From IMG/VR virus record IMGVR_UViG_2651869755_000021: 11,431 bases of DNA; one strand, written 5' to 3'. A program made the position numbers and the translations under genes. The DNA comes from a virus (lineage: Duplodnaviria; Heunggongvirae; Uroviricota; Caudoviricetes). The notes under the pieces were generated by a model that was given only the letters and a program-made list of their open reading frames with translations, was not told where the DNA came from and made no database searches. Positions 2,460 to 10,956 of this stretch are shown here, piece by piece (within the stretch, counting starts at the first letter, position 1; each line of letters opens with the position of its first letter).

Positions 2460-3008
2460 ATGAAACTGAAGCTGAACAATGTTCGTCTGGCCTTCCCGTC
2501 TCTGTTTGAAGCTAAAACTGTAAACGGCGAAGGCGATCCGCGTTTCTCCGCAGTATTTTTAATGTCTCCCAAACACCCACAACTGGAAGAAATCCGTAAA
2601 GCTATGAAGCAGGTAGCGAAGGAAAAATGGGGGGAGAAGTGGGAGTCCATTTATAACCAGCTGGAGAAAAAACTCAATCTGTGCCTGCATGATGGTGATG
2701 AAAAAGCAGAGTATGAAGGCTTTCCCGGCAATTTCTTCCTGAACGCTGCTAACAAAGCGCGCCCAGCTGTTCTTGATCGCGATCGTTCGCCACTAATTCA
2801 GGCTGATGGACGTCCCTATGCAGGGTGCTATGTAAACGCCGTTATCGATATCTGGGCACAGGACAATAATTTCGGTAAACGCATTAATGCCTCACTCGGC
2901 GGAGTCCAGTTCCTGCGAGACGGCGATGCATTTGCTGGCGGCGGAGTGGCAAGCGCTGACGATTTCGACGATATCAGCGAAGGTGCTGATGCTGAAGCAC
3001 TAATTTAA
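2460..3008 (+). CDS. Phage SSB-like ssDNA-binding protein (DUF2815-like) with acidic C-terminal tail
   Basis: 182 aa; AAGGA SD 8 nt before ATG 2460; N-terminus 'MKLKLNNVRLAFPSLFE' and acidic tail '...DDFDDISEGADAEALI' resemble the DUF2815/SSB family; sits between nuclease and polymerase as in known phage replication modules. Confidence 0.8.
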   Translation: MKLKLNNVRLAFPSLFEAKTVNGEGDPRFSAVFLMSPKHPQLEEIRKAMKQVAKEKWGEKWESIYNQLEKKLNLCLHDGDEKAEYEGFPGNFFLNAANKARPAVLDRDRSPLIQADGRPYAGCYVNAVIDIWAQDNNFGKRINASLGGVQFLRDGDAFAGGGVASADDFDDISEGADAEALI

Positions 3009-3019
3009 AAATATTCATC

Positions 3020-3038
3020 CCCCAGCTACGTGCTGGGG
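3020..3038 (+). promoter_or_regulatory. Perfect 7-bp stem / 5-nt loop hairpin (CCCCAGC-tacgt-GCTGGGG) just after the SSB-like gene stop
   Basis: Exact inverted repeat 3020-3026 / 3032-3038. No downstream U-run, so not a classical intrinsic terminator; possibly an RNA processing, stability or translational-control element overlapping the candidate starts at 3030 and 3045. Confidence 0.35.
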
Positions 3039-3059
3039 TATCTCATGAGGGAAAGAATA

Positions 3060-3707
3060 ATGTCACAGCCCGTATTAACTAATCACCTTAAAACTCAAAT
3101 CATCAATAACGCACTTGAGAAAGCGGGTATCCCCAAACGTAAATCAGCACTACGAGCTGCTCGTGTTGAATGGGCCGAACGTGTTCGGCTTGCAGCTATC
3201 GGGGGCGTAGAGAAAGAAGCTGAAATATTAAAAATATTAAAAATTATAAAAAAAATAGAAACACTGGTATCAAAATTACCCGAAGCATTAAAAACCGCCA
3301 ATAATATTATCAGGAAAGAGTGTTACATGTGTCTGAATCTGGCAGGTTCTCGGGTTACCGTCTATTTCAACGGTAACTATCGAGGATATGAATCAGGGTC
3401 ACCAGACCATATTCACAAAATCGCGCCGGGGGAATTTACCCTTCTGGCAAATGACCCTCTAGTTACAGAGTTTTACGGGTTTGATGCACTTTATGAGCAG
3501 ATACAGAGCGATGAGTCAGACATTCGACAGAATGTCAGCGCTGCACTCAGTAAAGTGCGCACAGTTAAGCGCCTGCTGGAAGAGTGGCCTGAAGCTAAAG
3601 AACTTCTGCCAGCCGATGCACCATCTGCTCCGCTTCCGCCAGCTATACGACGCGAAACTCTCAACGAAATGATCGGCCTCCCTTCTGACGAAGGGGTAGA
3701 TGCTTAA
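3060..3707 (+). CDS. Hypothetical protein with AT-rich Ile/Lys-rich repeat segment
   Basis: ORF is open from GTG 3030; in-frame ATGs at 3045 and 3060. ATG 3060 has GAGGG 8 nt upstream (preferred); 3030 and 3045 lie in or beside a hairpin. No recognised domain. Contains a 9-nt tandem repeat and an internal SD plus in-frame ATG at 3327. Confidence 0.6.
   Translation: MSQPVLTNHLKTQIINNALEKAGIPKRKSALRAARVEWAERVRLAAIGGVEKEAEILKILKIIKKIETLVSKLPEALKTANNIIRKECYMCLNLAGSRVTVYFNGNYRGYESGSPDHIHKIAPGEFTLLANDPLVTEFYGFDALYEQIQSDESDIRQNVSAALSKVRTVKRLLEEWPEAKELLPADAPSAPLPPAIRRETLNEMIGLPSDEGVDA
3225..3251 (+). repeat. Intragenic tandem 9-nt repeat (ATATTAAAA x2, then ATTATAAAA) followed by an A8 tract at 3248-3255
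   Basis: Read directly: atattaaaa/atattaaaa/attataaaa encoding ILK-ILK-IIK; strongly AT-rich compared with the rest of the gene. Confidence 0.8.
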
Positions 3708-3774
3708 TATTTCTTATAACAAAGGCTGGCTTAAGAAAATAGTTATCCAAACCAGCCTACCGCAATACTAAAAA

Positions 3775-4044
3775 TTAAAATTCATTGAATTTAAAAAGAC
3801 ATTTCCCTATTGGATTGCCATAGTCTCTACATGCCGAAATGCTGTCCCATACAGGCTGAGCCAAACACCCAAGAAAGAACCCAATAAGCGCAAAAATTAT
3901 AATTTTGGGAAGAACACGATCCTTAGGACCTTCTTCACGTTCGAGCCATGCGCCACCAGCCCGAACTATTCTCCCTAAAATATAAAGAATGGGGAAAGCA
4001 ATAATACCTATCAATGAAAGTATTCCGATACCAAAGCTAAACAC
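3775..4044 (-). CDS. Small membrane protein (89 aa, two predicted TM helices), opposite-strand accessory gene
   Basis: GTG start at 4044 preceded on the minus strand by AAGGAG with a 6-nt spacer. Hydrophobic stretches 'FSFGIGILSLIGIIAFPILYILG' and 'IIIFALIGFFLGCLAQPVW'. Lies in an AT-rich island between plus-strand genes. Confidence 0.6.
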   Translation of the reverse strand: MFSFGIGILSLIGIIAFPILYILGRIVRAGGAWLEREEGPKDRVLPKIIIFALIGFFLGCLAQPVWDSISACRDYGNPIGKCLFKFNEF

Positions 4045-4100
4045 CGCCGTCTCCTTGTTTATTTACACCTACATAACCATATATCACACAAGGTTATTTT

Positions 4101-6164
4101 ATGTCCAATATACTATGGGGTGACCTAGAAACCTATTGCGAAATCCCTATTACGAACGGTACCCATGCGTATGCCGAAGGCGTTGAAGTGATGCTGTTCG
4201 CATGGGCTATCAACGACGGGCCCATAAACGTGTGGGATATCACTGCCGGTGGTGGTATTCCACACGGCTTATACGAAGCAATCGCAGACCCTGAAACCCA
4301 GCTTTATTTCCATAACTCTCACTTCGACCGCACCGTCCTGCGTTATGCAATGCCGCGCCTGGCACCGCCAGTCGAACGTTGGCGCGACACAATGGTGCAG
4401 GCGCTGGCGCACGGTCTCCCGGGGTCTCTGGGGGAACTCTGCGAAGTACTAGGCGTCCCGCAAGACAAAGCGAAGGACAAAGAAGGTAAAGCGCTGATCC
4501 AGCTGTTCTGTAAGCCACGCCCGAAAAACAGCAAACTGCGCCGGGCCACCAGCAAAACTCACCCGGAAGAATGGCGGCGCTTTGTTGCTTACGCCGGACT
4601 GGATATCGAGGCAATGCGCGAAGTCTATAAACGTCTGCCGAAGTGGAATTATCAGGGGACAGAACTGGCGCTCTGGCATCGTGATCAGCAGATCAACGAC
4701 CGGGGCGTCTGCATGGACGTGGAACTCGCACGCGCTGCGATCGACGCGGTAGACCAGGAACAAAAGCGCCTGGCAAAGCGTACACAGGAAATGACTGATG
4801 GCGAAGTGCAGGCAGCCACACAACGAGACGCGTTGATTAAGCACATTGTTGAATCCTACGGTGTGGAGCTACCAGACATGCAACGCAGTACTCTGGAACG
4901 TCGTATTGCCGACCCCGATTTACCATCTGCCGTGAAAGAACTGCTGGCTATCCGCCTGCAGGCCAGTACTACCAGCACCAGTAAATACAAGGCACTGATG
5001 AAAGGCGTAAGCCACGACGGGCGCTTACGCGGTACGCTACAGTTCTGCGGGGCGTCACGTACCGGTCGTTGGGCCGGACGGCTATTCCAGCCCCAGAACC
5101 TTCCCCGCCCTTCACTAAAACAGGAACAAATAGACGAAGGCATCGAAGCACTGAAAGCCGGATGTGCAGACCTGCTGTTTGACAATATCATGGAACTAAC
5201 CAGTTCAGCGTTACGTGGCTGCATTATCGCGCCAACAGGCAAAAAGCTGGTGGTAAGTGACTTGTCGAACATTGAAGGCCGTATGCTGGCATGGCTGGCG
5301 GGAGAAGAATGGAAACTGAATGCATTCAGAGAGTACGACGCCGGAACGGGTCCGGACTTATATAAACTGGCGTATGCAAAAGCTTTCGATATTGCACCAG
5401 ATGATGTTGATAAACACATGCGTCAGATCGGTAAAGTCATGGAGCTCGGTCTGGGTTATGGTGGTGGTGTATCGGCTTTCATCACTTTTGCGCTGGTTTA
5501 CGGTCTCGATCTCGACGAGCTGGCGAACGCCGCACTGCCAAACATTCCCCGCGATGTTATCCGCGAGGCGAAAAGCTGGTACGACGAATCGGTTAAACGC
5601 AAGTCAACCTACGGGCTTTCTGAACGGGTATTTATCGCCTGCGACTCACTTAAACGTCTCTGGCGCAGGGCGCACCCGGCGACCTGCGATTTCTGGTACG
5701 AACTGGAGCGCACCGTCCGCACTGCAATCGCCACACCGCAAAAAACATTGTATTGCGGTTATCTTAAAATCCGCCGCGATGGCGCGTGGCTGCGCATACA
5801 GCTACCATCCGGACGCGCTGTATGCTACCCGTCTCCGGTTATCGAACAAGGGAATATCACCTACATGGGTGTTAACTCTTATTCGCGTAAATGGCAACGA
5901 CTCAAAACCTACGGCGGAAAGCTGGTGGAGAACGTCACCCAGGCGGCCGCCCGCGACGTTCTGGCCGGAAACATACCGCTTATCGAAGATGCCGGTTACA
6001 GCATTGTGCTGACGGTACACGACGAGGTGATCACCGAATCACCTGACACAGAAGATTTCAACGATAAAGCGCTTTCCGCGCTTCTCTCCACTAACCCCGA
6101 ATGGGCGCCCGATATCCCACTGAACGCTGGCGGTTTTGAGGCGTACCACTACCGTAAGGATTAA
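4101..6164 (+). CDS. Family A DNA polymerase (PolA-like) with 3'-5' exonuclease domain
   Basis: Exo I 'GDLET', Exo II '[10 protein letters not shown]', Exo III '[13 protein letters not shown]'; pol motif A '[15 protein letters not shown]', motif B '[16 protein letters not shown]', motif C 'VHDEVITE'. ATG 4101 with AAGG 8 nt upstream. Confidence 0.9.
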
Positions 6165-6169
6165 CTCCT

Positions 6170-6385
6170 ATGTCATTTAAATACCGGGATAATCCACTTT
6201 ATTACAGGGCTGCAAGGGAGGCTTTGCGACTTGAACAATCCGGCGAATATGACCGGGCAGCGAAGGTCTGGGCAAAAGCCAACCGCGAATCACATCACGA
6301 ACTGAATCAGGAATGGAGTGAACGCAGATCTGATTTTTGCCTGATGCAGAATATGCGTGAAAAGCGTAAGGCGGTCGAAGAATGA
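6170..6385 (+). CDS. Small hypothetical protein (71 aa)
   Basis: ATG 6170 six nt after the polymerase stop, AAGGA upstream; its stop overlaps the next start (ATGA at 6382-6385), suggesting translational coupling. No family recognised. Confidence 0.5.
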   Translation: MSFKYRDNPLYYRAAREALRLEQSGEYDRAAKVWAKANRESHHELNQEWSERRSDFCLMQNMREKRKAVEE

Positions 6386-6681
6386 TCGTTTACGTTGCCG
6401 GGCCGATGAGCGGTTACGAGCAATTTAACCGCCCGGCCTTTCATTCCGCAGCAAAGAGGCTAACGGACAAGGGATATGTTGTGCTTAACCCCGCAACTTT
6501 ACCCGATGGTTTGACACAGGCTCAGTACATGGACATCTGCCTCGCAATGCTTCGCTGTGCCGATACGATTTATATGCTCAAAGAGTGGGAGTACTCTGCC
6601 GGCGCACGTGCAGAAAACGCGTTGGCAGAGAAACTGGAATTGAATGTGCTTTTTGAAGAGTGGGATTCAGATGGCCTATGA
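6382..6681 (+). CDS. DUF4406 family protein (nucleoside 2-deoxyribosyltransferase-like fold)
   Basis: 99 aa; 'MIVYVAGPMSG...FN.PAF..AA..L...G..V.NPA...IYML..WE.S.GA..E...A..L' matches the DUF4406 pattern as I recall it; overlapping start/stop with the upstream gene. Confidence 0.7.
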   Translation: MIVYVAGPMSGYEQFNRPAFHSAAKRLTDKGYVVLNPATLPDGLTQAQYMDICLAMLRCADTIYMLKEWEYSAGARAENALAEKLELNVLFEEWDSDGL

Positions 6682-6952
6682 ACGTGAAAACCTAATCGAG
6701 AAGCATCTCGTCGCCGAAGTGAAAAAGGCTGGTGGGGTCGCCTTTAAGTTCATATCACCTGGTCGCCGCTCGGTACCAGATCGCATTGTTCTGCTACCCG
6801 GCGGCCGTCTCGTTTTCGTTGAATGTAAATCTCCCGGCAAGCCACCACGGCCTGACCAGTTGCGCGAGCATGAACGTCTGCGAAAGCTGGGCTTTACCGT
6901 GGTGGTGCTGGATAGCAAAGAGCTTACTGAAGTATTACCGCGAGCTCCCTAA
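6671..6952 (+). CDS. VRR-NUC domain nuclease (PD-(D/E)XK fold)
   Basis: 'VPDRIVLLPGGRLVFVECKSPGKPPRPDQLREHERL..GFTVVVLDS' carries the VRR-NUC D...E-x-K and Q signature. Start ambiguous: ATG 6671 (11-nt overlap with upstream gene, GGGA 5 nt upstream) or ATG 6644 (38-nt overlap). Confidence 0.75.
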   Translation: MAYERENLIEKHLVAEVKKAGGVAFKFISPGRRSVPDRIVLLPGGRLVFVECKSPGKPPRPDQLREHERLRKLGFTVVVLDSKELTEVLPRAP

Positions 6953-7867
6953 CTGAGTTTTTCGAAAGTTATCAGCGATTCTTGCTGCCTCAGAGCGCCC
7001 ACCAGGCAATAAACCAGCTTTACCAAGAATGTAATTTGGGAATTTAGTAGGTAGGTACTCATGACGGAACCAACGACGAAATTCTGGTAAAGCGTCATTG
7101 GGGTATGCCTGAATCATCTGTGGGTTCGAAGCTGCTTGGTTAAAATCATCCGGATAATGGTGCGCACACTTTACACGTTCTCCAAATTTTTCAGACAACC
7201 CTCTAGCGCTCCAATGTTTCGCCCAGCAGGAACCTACACTGATATCAGGTACCGTATACATATTAACTACGAGACCCGCGGTAATCAAATCAACCATCAA
7301 ACCTGCAATTTCATTAAAAACAATAAAATACCCATCCGGTACAGCTCCCGTACTTTGAATAAGAGAGACCCGGTCATGATAGTGGCGCCATGGATCTTCT
7401 GGCTGGTAATGTAACGCACCATAAATATAATCGCGGAGACCAACACGTGCTAGTTCACGATAGTATTGCTGAGCGGTCGCATTCGACGCTGTTTGTGATT
7501 CAAATGCGTAAAACTCCAGCAGTGCCATACAGACAATATCTGGAAACGCATAATGGACAGACCCATTACGCATAATCGGTATAAATAGTACTGGTTCACG
7601 GTAACCAGCCTGCTGCAGATAGGTACTTATAAACTCCATTCGCCCACGGGTGAATACGCCACTTGCAAAACATTGTGCGTATTCCGTTGCAATATCTGCA
7701 ATATTTGTTCGATTTACACCGCAAATTCTCGCCAAACCATTCTGAGTAAGGTACGGAATTCCGTTCTCCAAAACGCCCATTTCGATATCATTAAAAACCC
7801 CTTCCTGCTTGACACCAAGATCTAAGACCGCGCGGGGTGTGGGCTGAGGCTGACTCTGTGCATTCAT
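6935..7867 (-). CDS. Hypothetical protein (310 aa), opposite-strand accessory gene inside the replication module
   Basis: ATG at 7867 with AGGAA about 9 nt upstream on the minus strand; no comparable plus-strand ORF across the 918 bp beyond the VRR-NUC stop (6953-7870); visibly lower GC than its neighbours; 3' end overlaps the VRR-NUC 3' end by 18 nt (convergent). N-terminal segment 'IPYLTQNGLARICGVNRTNIADIA' may be a DNA-binding (HTH-like) region; no catalytic motif recognised. Confidence 0.7.
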   Translation of the reverse strand: MNAQSQPQPTPRAVLDLGVKQEGVFNDIEMGVLENGIPYLTQNGLARICGVNRTNIADIATEYAQCFASGVFTRGRMEFISTYLQQAGYREPVLFIPIMRNGSVHYAFPDIVCMALLEFYAFESQTASNATAQQYYRELARVGLRDYIYGALHYQPEDPWRHYHDRVSLIQSTGAVPDGYFIVFNEIAGLMVDLITAGLVVNMYTVPDISVGSCWAKHWSARGLSEKFGERVKCAHHYPDDFNQAASNPQMIQAYPNDALPEFRRWFRHEYLPTKFPNYILGKAGLLPGGRSEAARIADNFRKTQLGSSR

Positions 7868-9562: not shown

Positions 9563-10956
9563 CCTCGCCGCCGTAGCAATGCCACCTGCGCAAGTATGCT
9601 CCGCTCGTGAGCCTCGAAAGCTTCGCGCTTTAACGCAATCTCTTCCTGTAAAATCTCATCAGAAAAGTCGTAATGTTCTGCCATCGGGTCATCTGACTTG
9701 CTGGAGTGGTGAAGGCAAAGGAGGCTGATTTCCCTTCGGTCTGATCGGGAATAGCCTCTTTCCTTCATCAAGGCAATAACATTGCTCTTAAGGAATTTAC
9801 GGCACATCGTATTAAATGCACCGTCTTTCCCTTTAACAGTCCCATCATGTTTTATTCCTTTTACAGCCCCGTCCGGGCTGTATGTTTTCACCAGCTTATC
9901 CAGTGATCGTTTTGAAAATGGCTGCATTGGATCACGTGGCTGCAAAAATACATAATCCCTGTTGCACTCAGGAACTGAATCACGCCAGGCTTTCTGCTCG
10001 TCGATAATCCGCCGGATCTCAGGCGTTATCGGCAGGCGGAAAGCCTTTTGTGTTTTCATAGCCCCTCGCATGCCGATAACCCCTTCCGGATAAACAATTT
10101 CACCAGCCTCCTCGTGAACGTAGTCCCAGCGCAGGTTATGGACATTAATCGGACGAACGCCAGTGATGATCATGAAGCGAACAGCATTCTTCTGGTGTAC
10201 AGAGGTGCAGGCAGCAACATTGAGCCAGAGTCGGGCGATTGATTCAATATCGGTAAAAAGCCGTGTGGGGGTGGGTTTCTGTACGCGGGAGGAAACATAA
10301 TCATCTGGCAAACTGGCGGCAACATTGCGGCCGTTGCAAAGAGTAGGTGCGCAGAACTTCCAGAACCGACGGAGCTCGGCAAACAACTCTAGGGCGTTAT
10401 TGTTCGAGCGAGTGGCGATCCACTCGTCCAGCACTTCCACCAGCCGACTGTATGTTACGTCGCTGAACACCTCGCGCTCGCCGAACGTTGCTTTAATCCG
10501 GTCGATACGCACCCCGTAGGTTGTGAAACTGTCCGGGCTCAGCTTCTGCCGGGCTACTTTGGCTTTGAGGTCATCCCGGTACATTTCCAGCGCTGCATGT
10601 ACGGACTCTGCCCGCAGTCCACCGTCAGCCATACCTAGTGCTTTTTCGCGCGCCAGCTGGATAGCGAGCTCCGGCCACTCGCCGAGCTTTTTACCTTTGA
10701 GGCCCATCTTTTTTGGAAACTCGGCGTAAAATGTAACCTTACCGGCTTTGCTGAAATCGATACGGAGATAGTTCTCTTTTTCGTATTTGGAACGGCGAGC
10801 CACACCGGAAGCAGCGAGGATGATTTTGGCGGCAGCAACACAGATTTTCATGTGTGCGCTGGTATAGGGGGGTTTACAAGCGTCCCATTTTTCAGATGCG
10901 GCTAAAACATCGTCATTATTGGGGCTATCCGGATTATGTGTTACAGTGCACGGCAT
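9559..10956 (-). CDS. Tyrosine recombinase (phage integrase)
   Basis: Catalytic-core features: 'ITGVRPINV' (Arg box), 'LLCLHHSSKSDDPMAEHYDF' (His and Tyr region). ATG 10956 has AAGGA with a 6-nt spacer; the ORF is open from TTG 10962, and ATG 10851 is another candidate but lacks an SD. Stop overlaps the AlpA-like stop. Confidence 0.8.
   Translation of the reverse strand: MPCTVTHNPDSPNNDDVLAASEKWDACKPPYTSAHMKICVAAAKIILAASGVARRSKYEKENYLRIDFSKAGKVTFYAEFPKKMGLKGKKLGEWPELAIQLAREKALGMADGGLRAESVHAALEMYRDDLKAKVARQKLSPDSFTTYGVRIDRIKATFGEREVFSDVTYSRLVEVLDEWIATRSNNNALELFAELRRFWKFCAPTLCNGRNVAASLPDDYVSSRVQKPTPTRLFTDIESIARLWLNVAACTSVHQKNAVRFMIITGVRPINVHNLRWDYVHEEAGEIVYPEGVIGMRGAMKTQKAFRLPITPEIRRIIDEQKAWRDSVPECNRDYVFLQPRDPMQPFSKRSLDKLVKTYSPDGAVKGIKHDGTVKGKDGAFNTMCRKFLKSNVIALMKERGYSRSDRREISLLCLHHSSKSDDPMAEHYDFSDEILQEEIALKREAFEAHERSILAQVALLRRRG

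Follow-up and report, generated by a model that had tools for sequence, protein, structure and literature searches.

Genes for small inner-membrane proteins carried as prophage accessory genes, or morons, are well known, and in phage lambda the prophage-expressed Bor protein, an outer-membrane lipoprotein, is encoded by a lone opposite-strand gene between the lysis and packaging genes. HK97 gp15, a small exclusion protein of the inner membrane, is encoded by a moron, and most of its homologues are chromosomal, non-phage proteins (YebO) (PMC3594210). T4 Imm acts at the inner membrane and blocks DNA entry (T4 record annotation; PMC11436027), and P22 SieA is a prophage-expressed inner-membrane protein that likewise blocks DNA entry (PMC11436027; PMC10883804). 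Here we describe a gene in an 11,431-nucleotide stretch of viral DNA (IMG/VR record IMGVR_UViG_2651869755_000021; the window), which is the early and replication arm of an Escherichia coli prophage integrated beside yfhL. The gene (3775..4044, minus strand) encodes 89 amino acids (aa) and lies antisense to the replication operon, directly before a family A DNA polymerase gene. We tentatively propose, as the best overall explanation, that it is a prophage moron encoding an inner-membrane helical hairpin that acts in superinfection exclusion.

The locus resembles each of these systems in part. Like gp15, the predicted product is a small inner-membrane protein encoded in a self-contained cassette inside a phage operon with its own terminator, and the mixed phage and chromosomal distribution of its family mirrors that of gp15, whose mostly chromosomal homologues imply capture of a host gene (PMC3594210); gp15, however, has 62 aa, one hydrophobic helix and no Cys pair, and its gene is co-oriented in the tail operon. 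Imm is similar in size (83 aa) and has a short basic loop between its two transmembrane helices, and its gene also adjoins a phage DNA polymerase gene, but it lacks a conserved periplasmic C-x9-C tail and belongs to a virulent phage, in which it is expressed during infection and not from a prophage. SieA is a distinct protein, and no PHROG or Pfam family links the two, although no direct pairwise comparison was run. Many homologues of the 89-aa protein occupy a Bor-type position between lysis and packaging genes, but Bor is not a two-helix inner-membrane protein and the window gene lies in the replication module.

The open reading frame (ORF) has 89 codons with a GTG start and a TAA stop, and an identical coding sequence is called by the Prokaryotic Genome Annotation Pipeline (PGAP) in E. 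coli CREC-544 (WP_000490740.1, 'hypothetical protein'). Reading along the minus strand, a consensus Shine-Dalgarno (SD) sequence, AAGGAG (4056-4051), is separated from the GTG (4044-4042) by the 6-nt spacer ACGGCG (4050-4045). The product has two hydrophobic segments, with Kyte-Doolittle maxima (19-residue windows) of 2.44 at residues 5-24 and 2.40 at residues 44-62. The ORF has a G+C content (GC) of 39.6%, its intergenic flanks 32.8% and 35.7%, and the stretch 3708-4100 37.9%, compared with 49.5% for the whole window and 54.4% for the polymerase gene; GC at third codon positions (GC3) is 0.30 in the ORF and 0.576 in the polymerase gene. An initial annotation, made from the sequence alone, had described a GTG-initiated small membrane-protein gene with this ribosome-binding site and spacer and two hydrophobic helices, antisense to a prophage replication operon, in an AT-rich island with an AT-rich gap before the polymerase gene, and all of this is borne out. 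Since longer spurious antisense ORFs are abundant in the window, length by itself is no proof of a gene. The ORF belongs, however, to a conserved full-length protein family and is therefore more than a chance occurrence; we regard it as almost certainly a real gene.

Word-indexed protein searches return only E. coli copies that are at least 98% identical, to which a family profile adds five distant members, and so suggest an orphan protein. This is overturned by scanning 1.84 billion cluster representatives exhaustively with HMMER, which gives 121 matching representatives at E≤1e-3 and 37 at E≤1e-10. The members are nearly all 80-100 aa long, the alignments run from end to end, and the taxonomic span covers Gamma- and Betaproteobacteria plus one Campylobacterota plasmid. 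In a 60-sequence alignment G59, Q63, C72 and C82 are invariant, with G7 and G55 nearly so, and the consensus is F-S-x-G-x-x-S for helix 1, A-W...R...P-K-[D/E]-R-V for the loop, G-F-x-x-G-S-x-x-Q-P-x-W-D for helix 2 and C-x9-C for the tail. Helix 2 includes a GxxxG (G55-x3-G59), a classic helix-packing motif. One near-identical variant of the E. coli type (P0003, from an ENA metagenome contig) carries C82F and has lost an invariant cysteine; it is a single sequence and may reflect an assembly error.

AlphaFold2 with the family alignment predicts helices at residues 8-34, 44-74 and 79-86 with a mean predicted local distance difference test score (pLDDT) of 86.8; a single-sequence model gives a pLDDT of 72. 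Over 91 members the mean number of lysine and arginine residues is 5.1 in the loop, 2.5 in the tail and 0.25 in the N-terminus before helix 1, and the loop exceeds the tail in 81 of the 91. By the positive-inside rule the basic loop (residues 25-47) would therefore be cytoplasmic and both termini periplasmic, which places the invariant cysteines in the oxidising periplasm. From established DsbA biology, an invariant Cys pair is sensible only there. A check of topology had been suggested in the initial annotation, and it yields a two-helix hairpin that we consider likely to sit in the inner membrane in an N-out/C-out orientation, in which the C-x9-C pair would form a disulfide stapling the short helix 3 onto the end of helix 2. 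The protein is not a lipoprotein, as it has no lipobox, and a cleavable signal peptide is rejected because there is no basic n-region and the basic loop comes after helix 1.

The distribution of the gene among close relatives was determined with a 601-bp probe across it, which matches 151 of 5,426 complete E. coli genomes. In 32 of the 151 the gene itself is covered, uninterrupted and at 99.3-100% identity, and the gene order is always Nmad5, hypothetical, polymerase; in the other 119 the match starts only at base 4074 or 4101. Breakpoints set by pairwise blastn against sister prophages (flank identity 95-99%) are sharp. Homology to the Nmad5-bearing sisters with a 229-aa cargo (L003, L034) stops at 3683 and restarts at 4074, which delimits an exchangeable cassette of 390 bp (3684..4073), and homology to the sisters without Nmad5 (L002, L004, L005, L013, L031 and L032) stops at 3006-3009 and restarts at 4101 (4109 in L005). 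The latter breakpoints mark a variable slot of 1.09 kb (3009..4100) between the stop codon of the single-stranded DNA-binding protein (SSB) gene and the polymerase ATG, filled here by Nmad5 on the plus strand and the 89-aa gene on the minus strand.

Nine loci were examined, one intact prophage bearing the 89-aa gene and eight sisters, and in each a single reverse-strand gene immediately precedes the polymerase gene, so that the slot is never empty among them. The eight sisters without the 89-aa gene carry unrelated reverse-strand genes of 166-229 codons, mostly encoding membrane proteins and with 29-35% GC. The alternative cargos have 166 aa (28.7% GC, a hydrophobic N-terminal segment), 199 aa (34.5% GC) and 209 aa (29.5% GC), both with hydrophobic segments at the N- and C-terminus, 207 aa (L032 1525-2148, minus strand) and 229 aa (39.3% GC, soluble); further coordinates, all on the minus strand, are L002 4325-4954, L003 4277-4966, L004 4375-4974 and L005 4471-4971. 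The cargos of 166, 199, 209 and 229 aa have no Pfam or PADLOC match, and those of 209 and 199 aa both match phrog_10579, a family of unknown function. The initial annotation had held that absence of the ORF from closely related elements would count against it. The ORF is indeed missing from 119 of the 151 genomes, yet all eight of the sisters examined hold a different antisense gene in its place, which marks the ORF as dispensable cargo and not as spurious.

A moron in the sense of Hendrix and Juhala, as summarised in PMC3594210, is an extra gene found at the same position in some close relatives, with a deviant base composition, a promoter and a terminator of its own, and expression from the repressed prophage. 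The 89-aa gene is present in a minority of otherwise matching genomes with sharp breakpoints, its GC and GC3 depart from those of the polymerase gene as given above, and a minus-strand hairpin supplies a terminator in silico; as to a promoter, only the candidate hexamers described below are seen. On its distribution, composition and terminator we consider it very probably swappable accessory cargo.

The hairpin at 3723-3758, which had been described as weak, exists, and on the minus strand its fold is strong: as minus-strand RNA it has a folding energy of -18.7 kcal/mol (z = -3.6), equalled by 1 of 200 shuffles. G-U pairs, available in the minus-strand RNA alone, lengthen the stem AGGCUGGUUU/AAGCCAGCCU to about 12 bp, and UUUGUUAU comes after it. 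In the plus-strand RNA a stem of only 7 bp closes a 22-nt loop, no U tract follows, and the folding energy over 81 nt is -10.6 kcal/mol (z = -0.85). The element (3715..3758, minus strand) is likely a strand-specific intrinsic terminator of the 89-aa gene; with no U tract and a weak plus-strand fold, it should not halt the early operon. Its placement plausibly keeps transcripts of the 89-aa gene from running antisense into Nmad5.

Promoters are less readily recognised. A sigma-70 scan of both strands from 3400 to 4500 finds no site with 9 of 12 consensus matches. A lenient search of the minus strand gives the -10-like hexamers TAAAAT (4101-4096), which overlaps the polymerase ATG, and TATATT (4112-4107), which lies within polymerase codons 3-4, and the expected promoter region of the 89-aa gene (4074..4112, minus strand) thus offers candidate hexamers only, with poor -35 elements. 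Conservation over the opening 30 nt of the polymerase gene does not exceed ordinary coding constraint and gives no sign of an embedded divergent promoter, and within 4045-4100 the lenient search yields no usable promoter for that gene. The divergent start codons of cargo and polymerase stand as little as 21-26 nt apart in sister prophages, so that a cargo promoter there would have to overlap the beginning of the polymerase gene, which itself would be transcribed by read-through across the cargo and not by a restart. The initial annotation had offered two alternatives, antisense traversal of the 89-aa gene or a new start within 4045-4100; read-through is the more likely, and a restart is unlikely.

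The early operon also contains a second reverse-strand gene, encoding the 310-aa BstA abortive-infection defence protein (6935..7867, minus strand; PADLOC BstA E = 1.4e-115; phrog_6287), between the VRR-NUC and SNF2 helicase genes. The BstA self-immunity element, aba, is expected around the 5' end of bstA. At the same position CREC-544 has a PDC-S42 candidate defence protein and two small membrane proteins, and other relatives have a five-helix membrane protein, another BstA or a cytosine methyltransferase. The prophage family thus keeps at least two antisense cargo slots in its early operon, of which the BstA slot is demonstrably a defence hotspot. Lysogens strongly express BstA, a prophage abortive-infection protein that has been characterised (PMC8585504). 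BstA and PDC-S42 resemble the 89-aa gene in being reverse-strand, low-GC, exchangeable cargo of the same early operon in the same prophage family, but BstA is a soluble DNA-binding protein (PMC8585504) and is unrelated to the 89-aa protein.

Relatives of the 89-aa gene turn up at several kinds of phage location, and in at least eight further temperate-phage lineages they stand alone on the opposite strand. A Serratia nevei copy with 46% identity faces away from a family A polymerase gene at the equivalent position, and a decayed S. nevei element (L009 8803-9279) has only a 47-aa remnant of the polymerase but an intact small membrane-protein gene, about 2 kb from which is a CAP12/PCTIR TIR-domain gene. 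One opposite-strand copy separates the lysis cassette from the terminase genes of a Pantoea ananatis lambdoid prophage, and another is in the early region, near an S24 repressor, of an Undibacterium umbellatum prophage. In Pseudomonas phage Pacha_bin_1 the gene is convergent with the endolysin gene, between lysis and packaging genes, and in a metagenomic lambda-like phage it is co-oriented between the terminase and portal genes. A search of IMG/VR and of chromosomes with a back-translated motif pattern, in which hits on viral contigs were confirmed by hidden Markov model (HMM), identifies 23 IMG/VR viral contigs from at least eight lineages, all of them confirmed members; in L042, L048/49, L051 and L052 the gene is at the lysis/packaging junction on the strand opposite the flanking module. 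The family gene has a lower GC than its locus in all 12 viral loci checked. These positions show that the family has been captured repeatedly by unrelated temperate phages in classic moron positions. A Sulfuricurvum plasmid also carries one copy, and the motif pattern finds a pseudogene copy in Undibacterium terreum.

Family libraries and structure searches do not connect the protein to a described family. Pfam and NCBIfam give only hydrophobic noise for the 89-aa protein and for 60 members scanned individually, PADLOC-DB 2.0 gives no family for the protein and one marginal match (E = 0.0034) among the 60, and PHROGs has no match for the protein itself; two distant members match phrog_8574, a family of unknown function. 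Among PDB sequences a profile search returns nothing significant, and the best Foldseek E-values, 1.1 in BFVD and 1.9 in PDB, are non-significant helical-hairpin noise. Searches of the literature on the accession, on names of related phages and on the DUF2800/DUF2815 prophage module found nothing on the 89-aa gene or its slot. As far as the libraries and literature searched show, the family, its sequence hallmarks and the pre-polymerase cargo slot are undescribed.

The proposal of superinfection exclusion rests on the analogy with gp15, Imm and SieA and on the company the gene keeps, with a defence slot as its neighbour in the operon. The lysogen is probably helped by the 89-aa protein, and exclusion at the DNA-entry step, although far from assured, is by this analogy the single most likely activity. 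The cassette supplies its own ribosome-binding site and a likely strand-specific terminator of its own, and as the gene opposes the repressed early operon it could be transcribed in the lysogen; after induction, early transcripts would read antisense through the cassette to the polymerase gene. The protein would sit in the inner membrane of the lysogen and obstruct incoming phages at a step that takes place there, most probably DNA entry, with the conserved periplasmic loop and the transmembrane surface as its contact surfaces, and both host and prophage would benefit. More speculatively, and with considerable doubt, the family may comprise widespread single-gene phage-borne inner-membrane exclusion or defence proteins, each a GxxxG hairpin with a disulfide-stapled C-x9-C loop, and the pre-polymerase position may be a hotspot, invariably occupied by one or another antisense membrane-protein cargo and thereby determining the exclusion specificity of each prophage, beside the BstA/PDC-S42 hotspot 3 kb away.

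Several observations weigh against exclusion. PADLOC detects no homology to a known defence protein, and hhalign finds none to gp15 (probability 1.7%, with only 15 hydrophobic columns aligned) or to Imm (probability 0.6%, and no Pfam hit). The other cargos of the pre-polymerase slot are likewise of unknown function, and the sigma-70 scan described above gave no promoter. Ordinary chromosomal copies are found with the motif pattern in Xanthomonas, Castellaniella, Methylophilus and Roseateles, and three distant members (L011/L012 9001-9336, L014 8001-8276 and L016 8001-8258) lie directly downstream of type I secretion/RTX loci, which consist of ABC-MFP-OEP-HlyC or encode a 1281-aa RTX protein. 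Given these chromosomal and RTX-adjacent members, the ancestral role of the family was probably not phage exclusion. One of the RTX-adjacent members also adjoins CTD7/MC3 conflict-system domains.

The same chromosomal members lend some credence to the main alternative, a role in the host, which we hold possible though rather doubtful: the protein could be a borrowed cellular gene product that serves as a lysogenic-conversion factor, acting on a host inner-membrane protein (a sensor kinase, a transporter, or a component of secretion or envelope stress) or conferring immunity to a membrane-damaging toxin or bacteriocin. The homologues in the four genera named stand alone amid housekeeping genes, and the position directly downstream of type I secretion/RTX loci is the classic one for an immunity gene and suggests an immunity-like role for those three members. 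Conserved motifs on both membrane faces, together with the GxxxG, suggest a specific protein partner, and small regulators such as MgrB also rely on a periplasmic Cys pair. No neighbour is conserved across contexts, however, so that no partner can be named, and both slots of the prophage are filled with membrane or defence-type cargo. Repeated capture by unrelated temperate phages in moron positions also fits phage-phage competition at least as well.

A membrane-permeabilising toxin is improbable, whether as an abortive-infection effector, as a type I-like toxin restrained by antisense transcription from the early operon, or as a holin- or antiholin-like modulator of lysis. The protein is small and very hydrophobic with a strong ribosome-binding site, the long operon on the other strand could supply antisense RNA, and several homologues adjoin lysis cassettes. 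Those homologues are on the opposite strand, though, outside the lysis transcript, and in the intact CREC-544 relative the lysis cassette (holin, endolysin) is about 10 kb from the 89-aa gene. The lone homologues in many chromosomes have no antitoxin candidate, and conservation covers the loop motifs and the Cys pair, not hydrophobicity alone. A class II holin or pinholin is rejected, as no PHROG holin or toxin family matches the protein family and the gene is not co-transcribed with an endolysin. A type I toxin is typically a single helix of fewer than 60 aa with a dedicated antisense small RNA (sRNA), whereas this protein has 89 aa, two helices and a structured tail; Rfam finds no RNA family in the window, although a dedicated unannotated sRNA is possible. 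Of the functions put forward in the initial annotation, the context thus fits an accessory moron class that includes exclusion factors, given the swappable slot and the nearby bstA slot, and disfavours toxins and lysis-related peptides.

We think it quite improbable that the gene has an essential lytic-cycle function, such as membrane anchoring of replication or packaging, with the various slot cargos as analogous versions. In its favour, the slot is occupied in all nine prophages and directly adjoins the polymerase gene. Its occupants, however, are unrelated in sequence and architecture, one of them being soluble, the gene opposes the early operon, it persists in the Serratia remnant that has lost its polymerase gene, and homologues in other phages are at quite different positions. 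An unexpressed fossil or chance ORF, for which the missing promoter and the 119 related prophages without the gene might be cited, is hardly credible, being contradicted by the family of full-length homologues, whose invariant residues hold from Gamma- and Betaproteobacteria to a Campylobacterota plasmid, by the nearly identical, uninterrupted copies in 32 E. coli genomes, and by the consensus SD sequence and own terminator.

The prophage in the window has the gene order 273-aa protein of unknown function, DUF2800 PD-(D/E)XK nuclease, DUF2815/Enc34-type SSB, Nmad5, the 89-aa gene (reverse), family A DNA polymerase, ANR/PerC-like regulator, DUF4406, VRR-NUC, the 310-aa gene (reverse), SNF2 helicase, helix-turn-helix protein and tyrosine integrase (reverse), followed by yfhL. 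The intact relative in CREC-544 runs on into repressor, lysis and structural genes, and inducible phages of the same type, such as vB_EcoM-611R5, have been deposited. An IS1 end takes up positions 1-248 of the window and shares 99-100% identity with IS1 copies in P1, SfIV and others. Homology to intact sister prophages begins exactly at base 248; the copy in the window has thus been interrupted or truncated by IS1, at a junction that occurs in none of the complete E. coli genomes searched.

The Nmad5 (nucleotide-modification-associated) gene is on the plus strand, and its longest ORF (3030-3707) starts with GTG at 3030 and has 225 codons; a start at 3069 is the alternative, and the RefSeq version of the identical gene is 639 nt long (212 aa). 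The gene is optional, being missing from six of the eight sister prophages compared. Together with the DUF4406 or nucleoside 2-deoxyribosyltransferase-like gene of the replication operon (6382-6681, plus strand), it hints at DNA modification by this prophage family. In some sister phages (L013 7118-7879; L033 4329-4500) a TIR-domain gene stands right after the polymerase gene in place of ANR/DUF4406, and this post-polymerase position may be a third variable, defence-like site in the operon. In the prophage of enterotoxigenic E. coli H10407 (L002) the polymerase gene (5001-7075) is frameshifted and the SNF2 gene (9904-10100) has an internal stop; the 209-aa antisense cargo and a BstA-like gene are still intact.

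No part of prophage cargo is more poorly annotated than its small membrane proteins, and the few that have been studied (gp15, Imm and SieA) proved to be potent and specific barriers to phage DNA entry. The evidence presented here holds nothing that would surprise a phage biologist, and it yields a well-defined candidate, a conserved family of 85-95 aa with clear sequence hallmarks. If the 89-aa protein were instead a host modulator or a toxin-immunity protein, it would be a new lysogenic-conversion factor. If it acts in exclusion, it would represent a one-gene defence family missing from current defence databases, and the pre-polymerase slot would be a new hotspot to mine, with five other uncharacterised cargo genes already in it.

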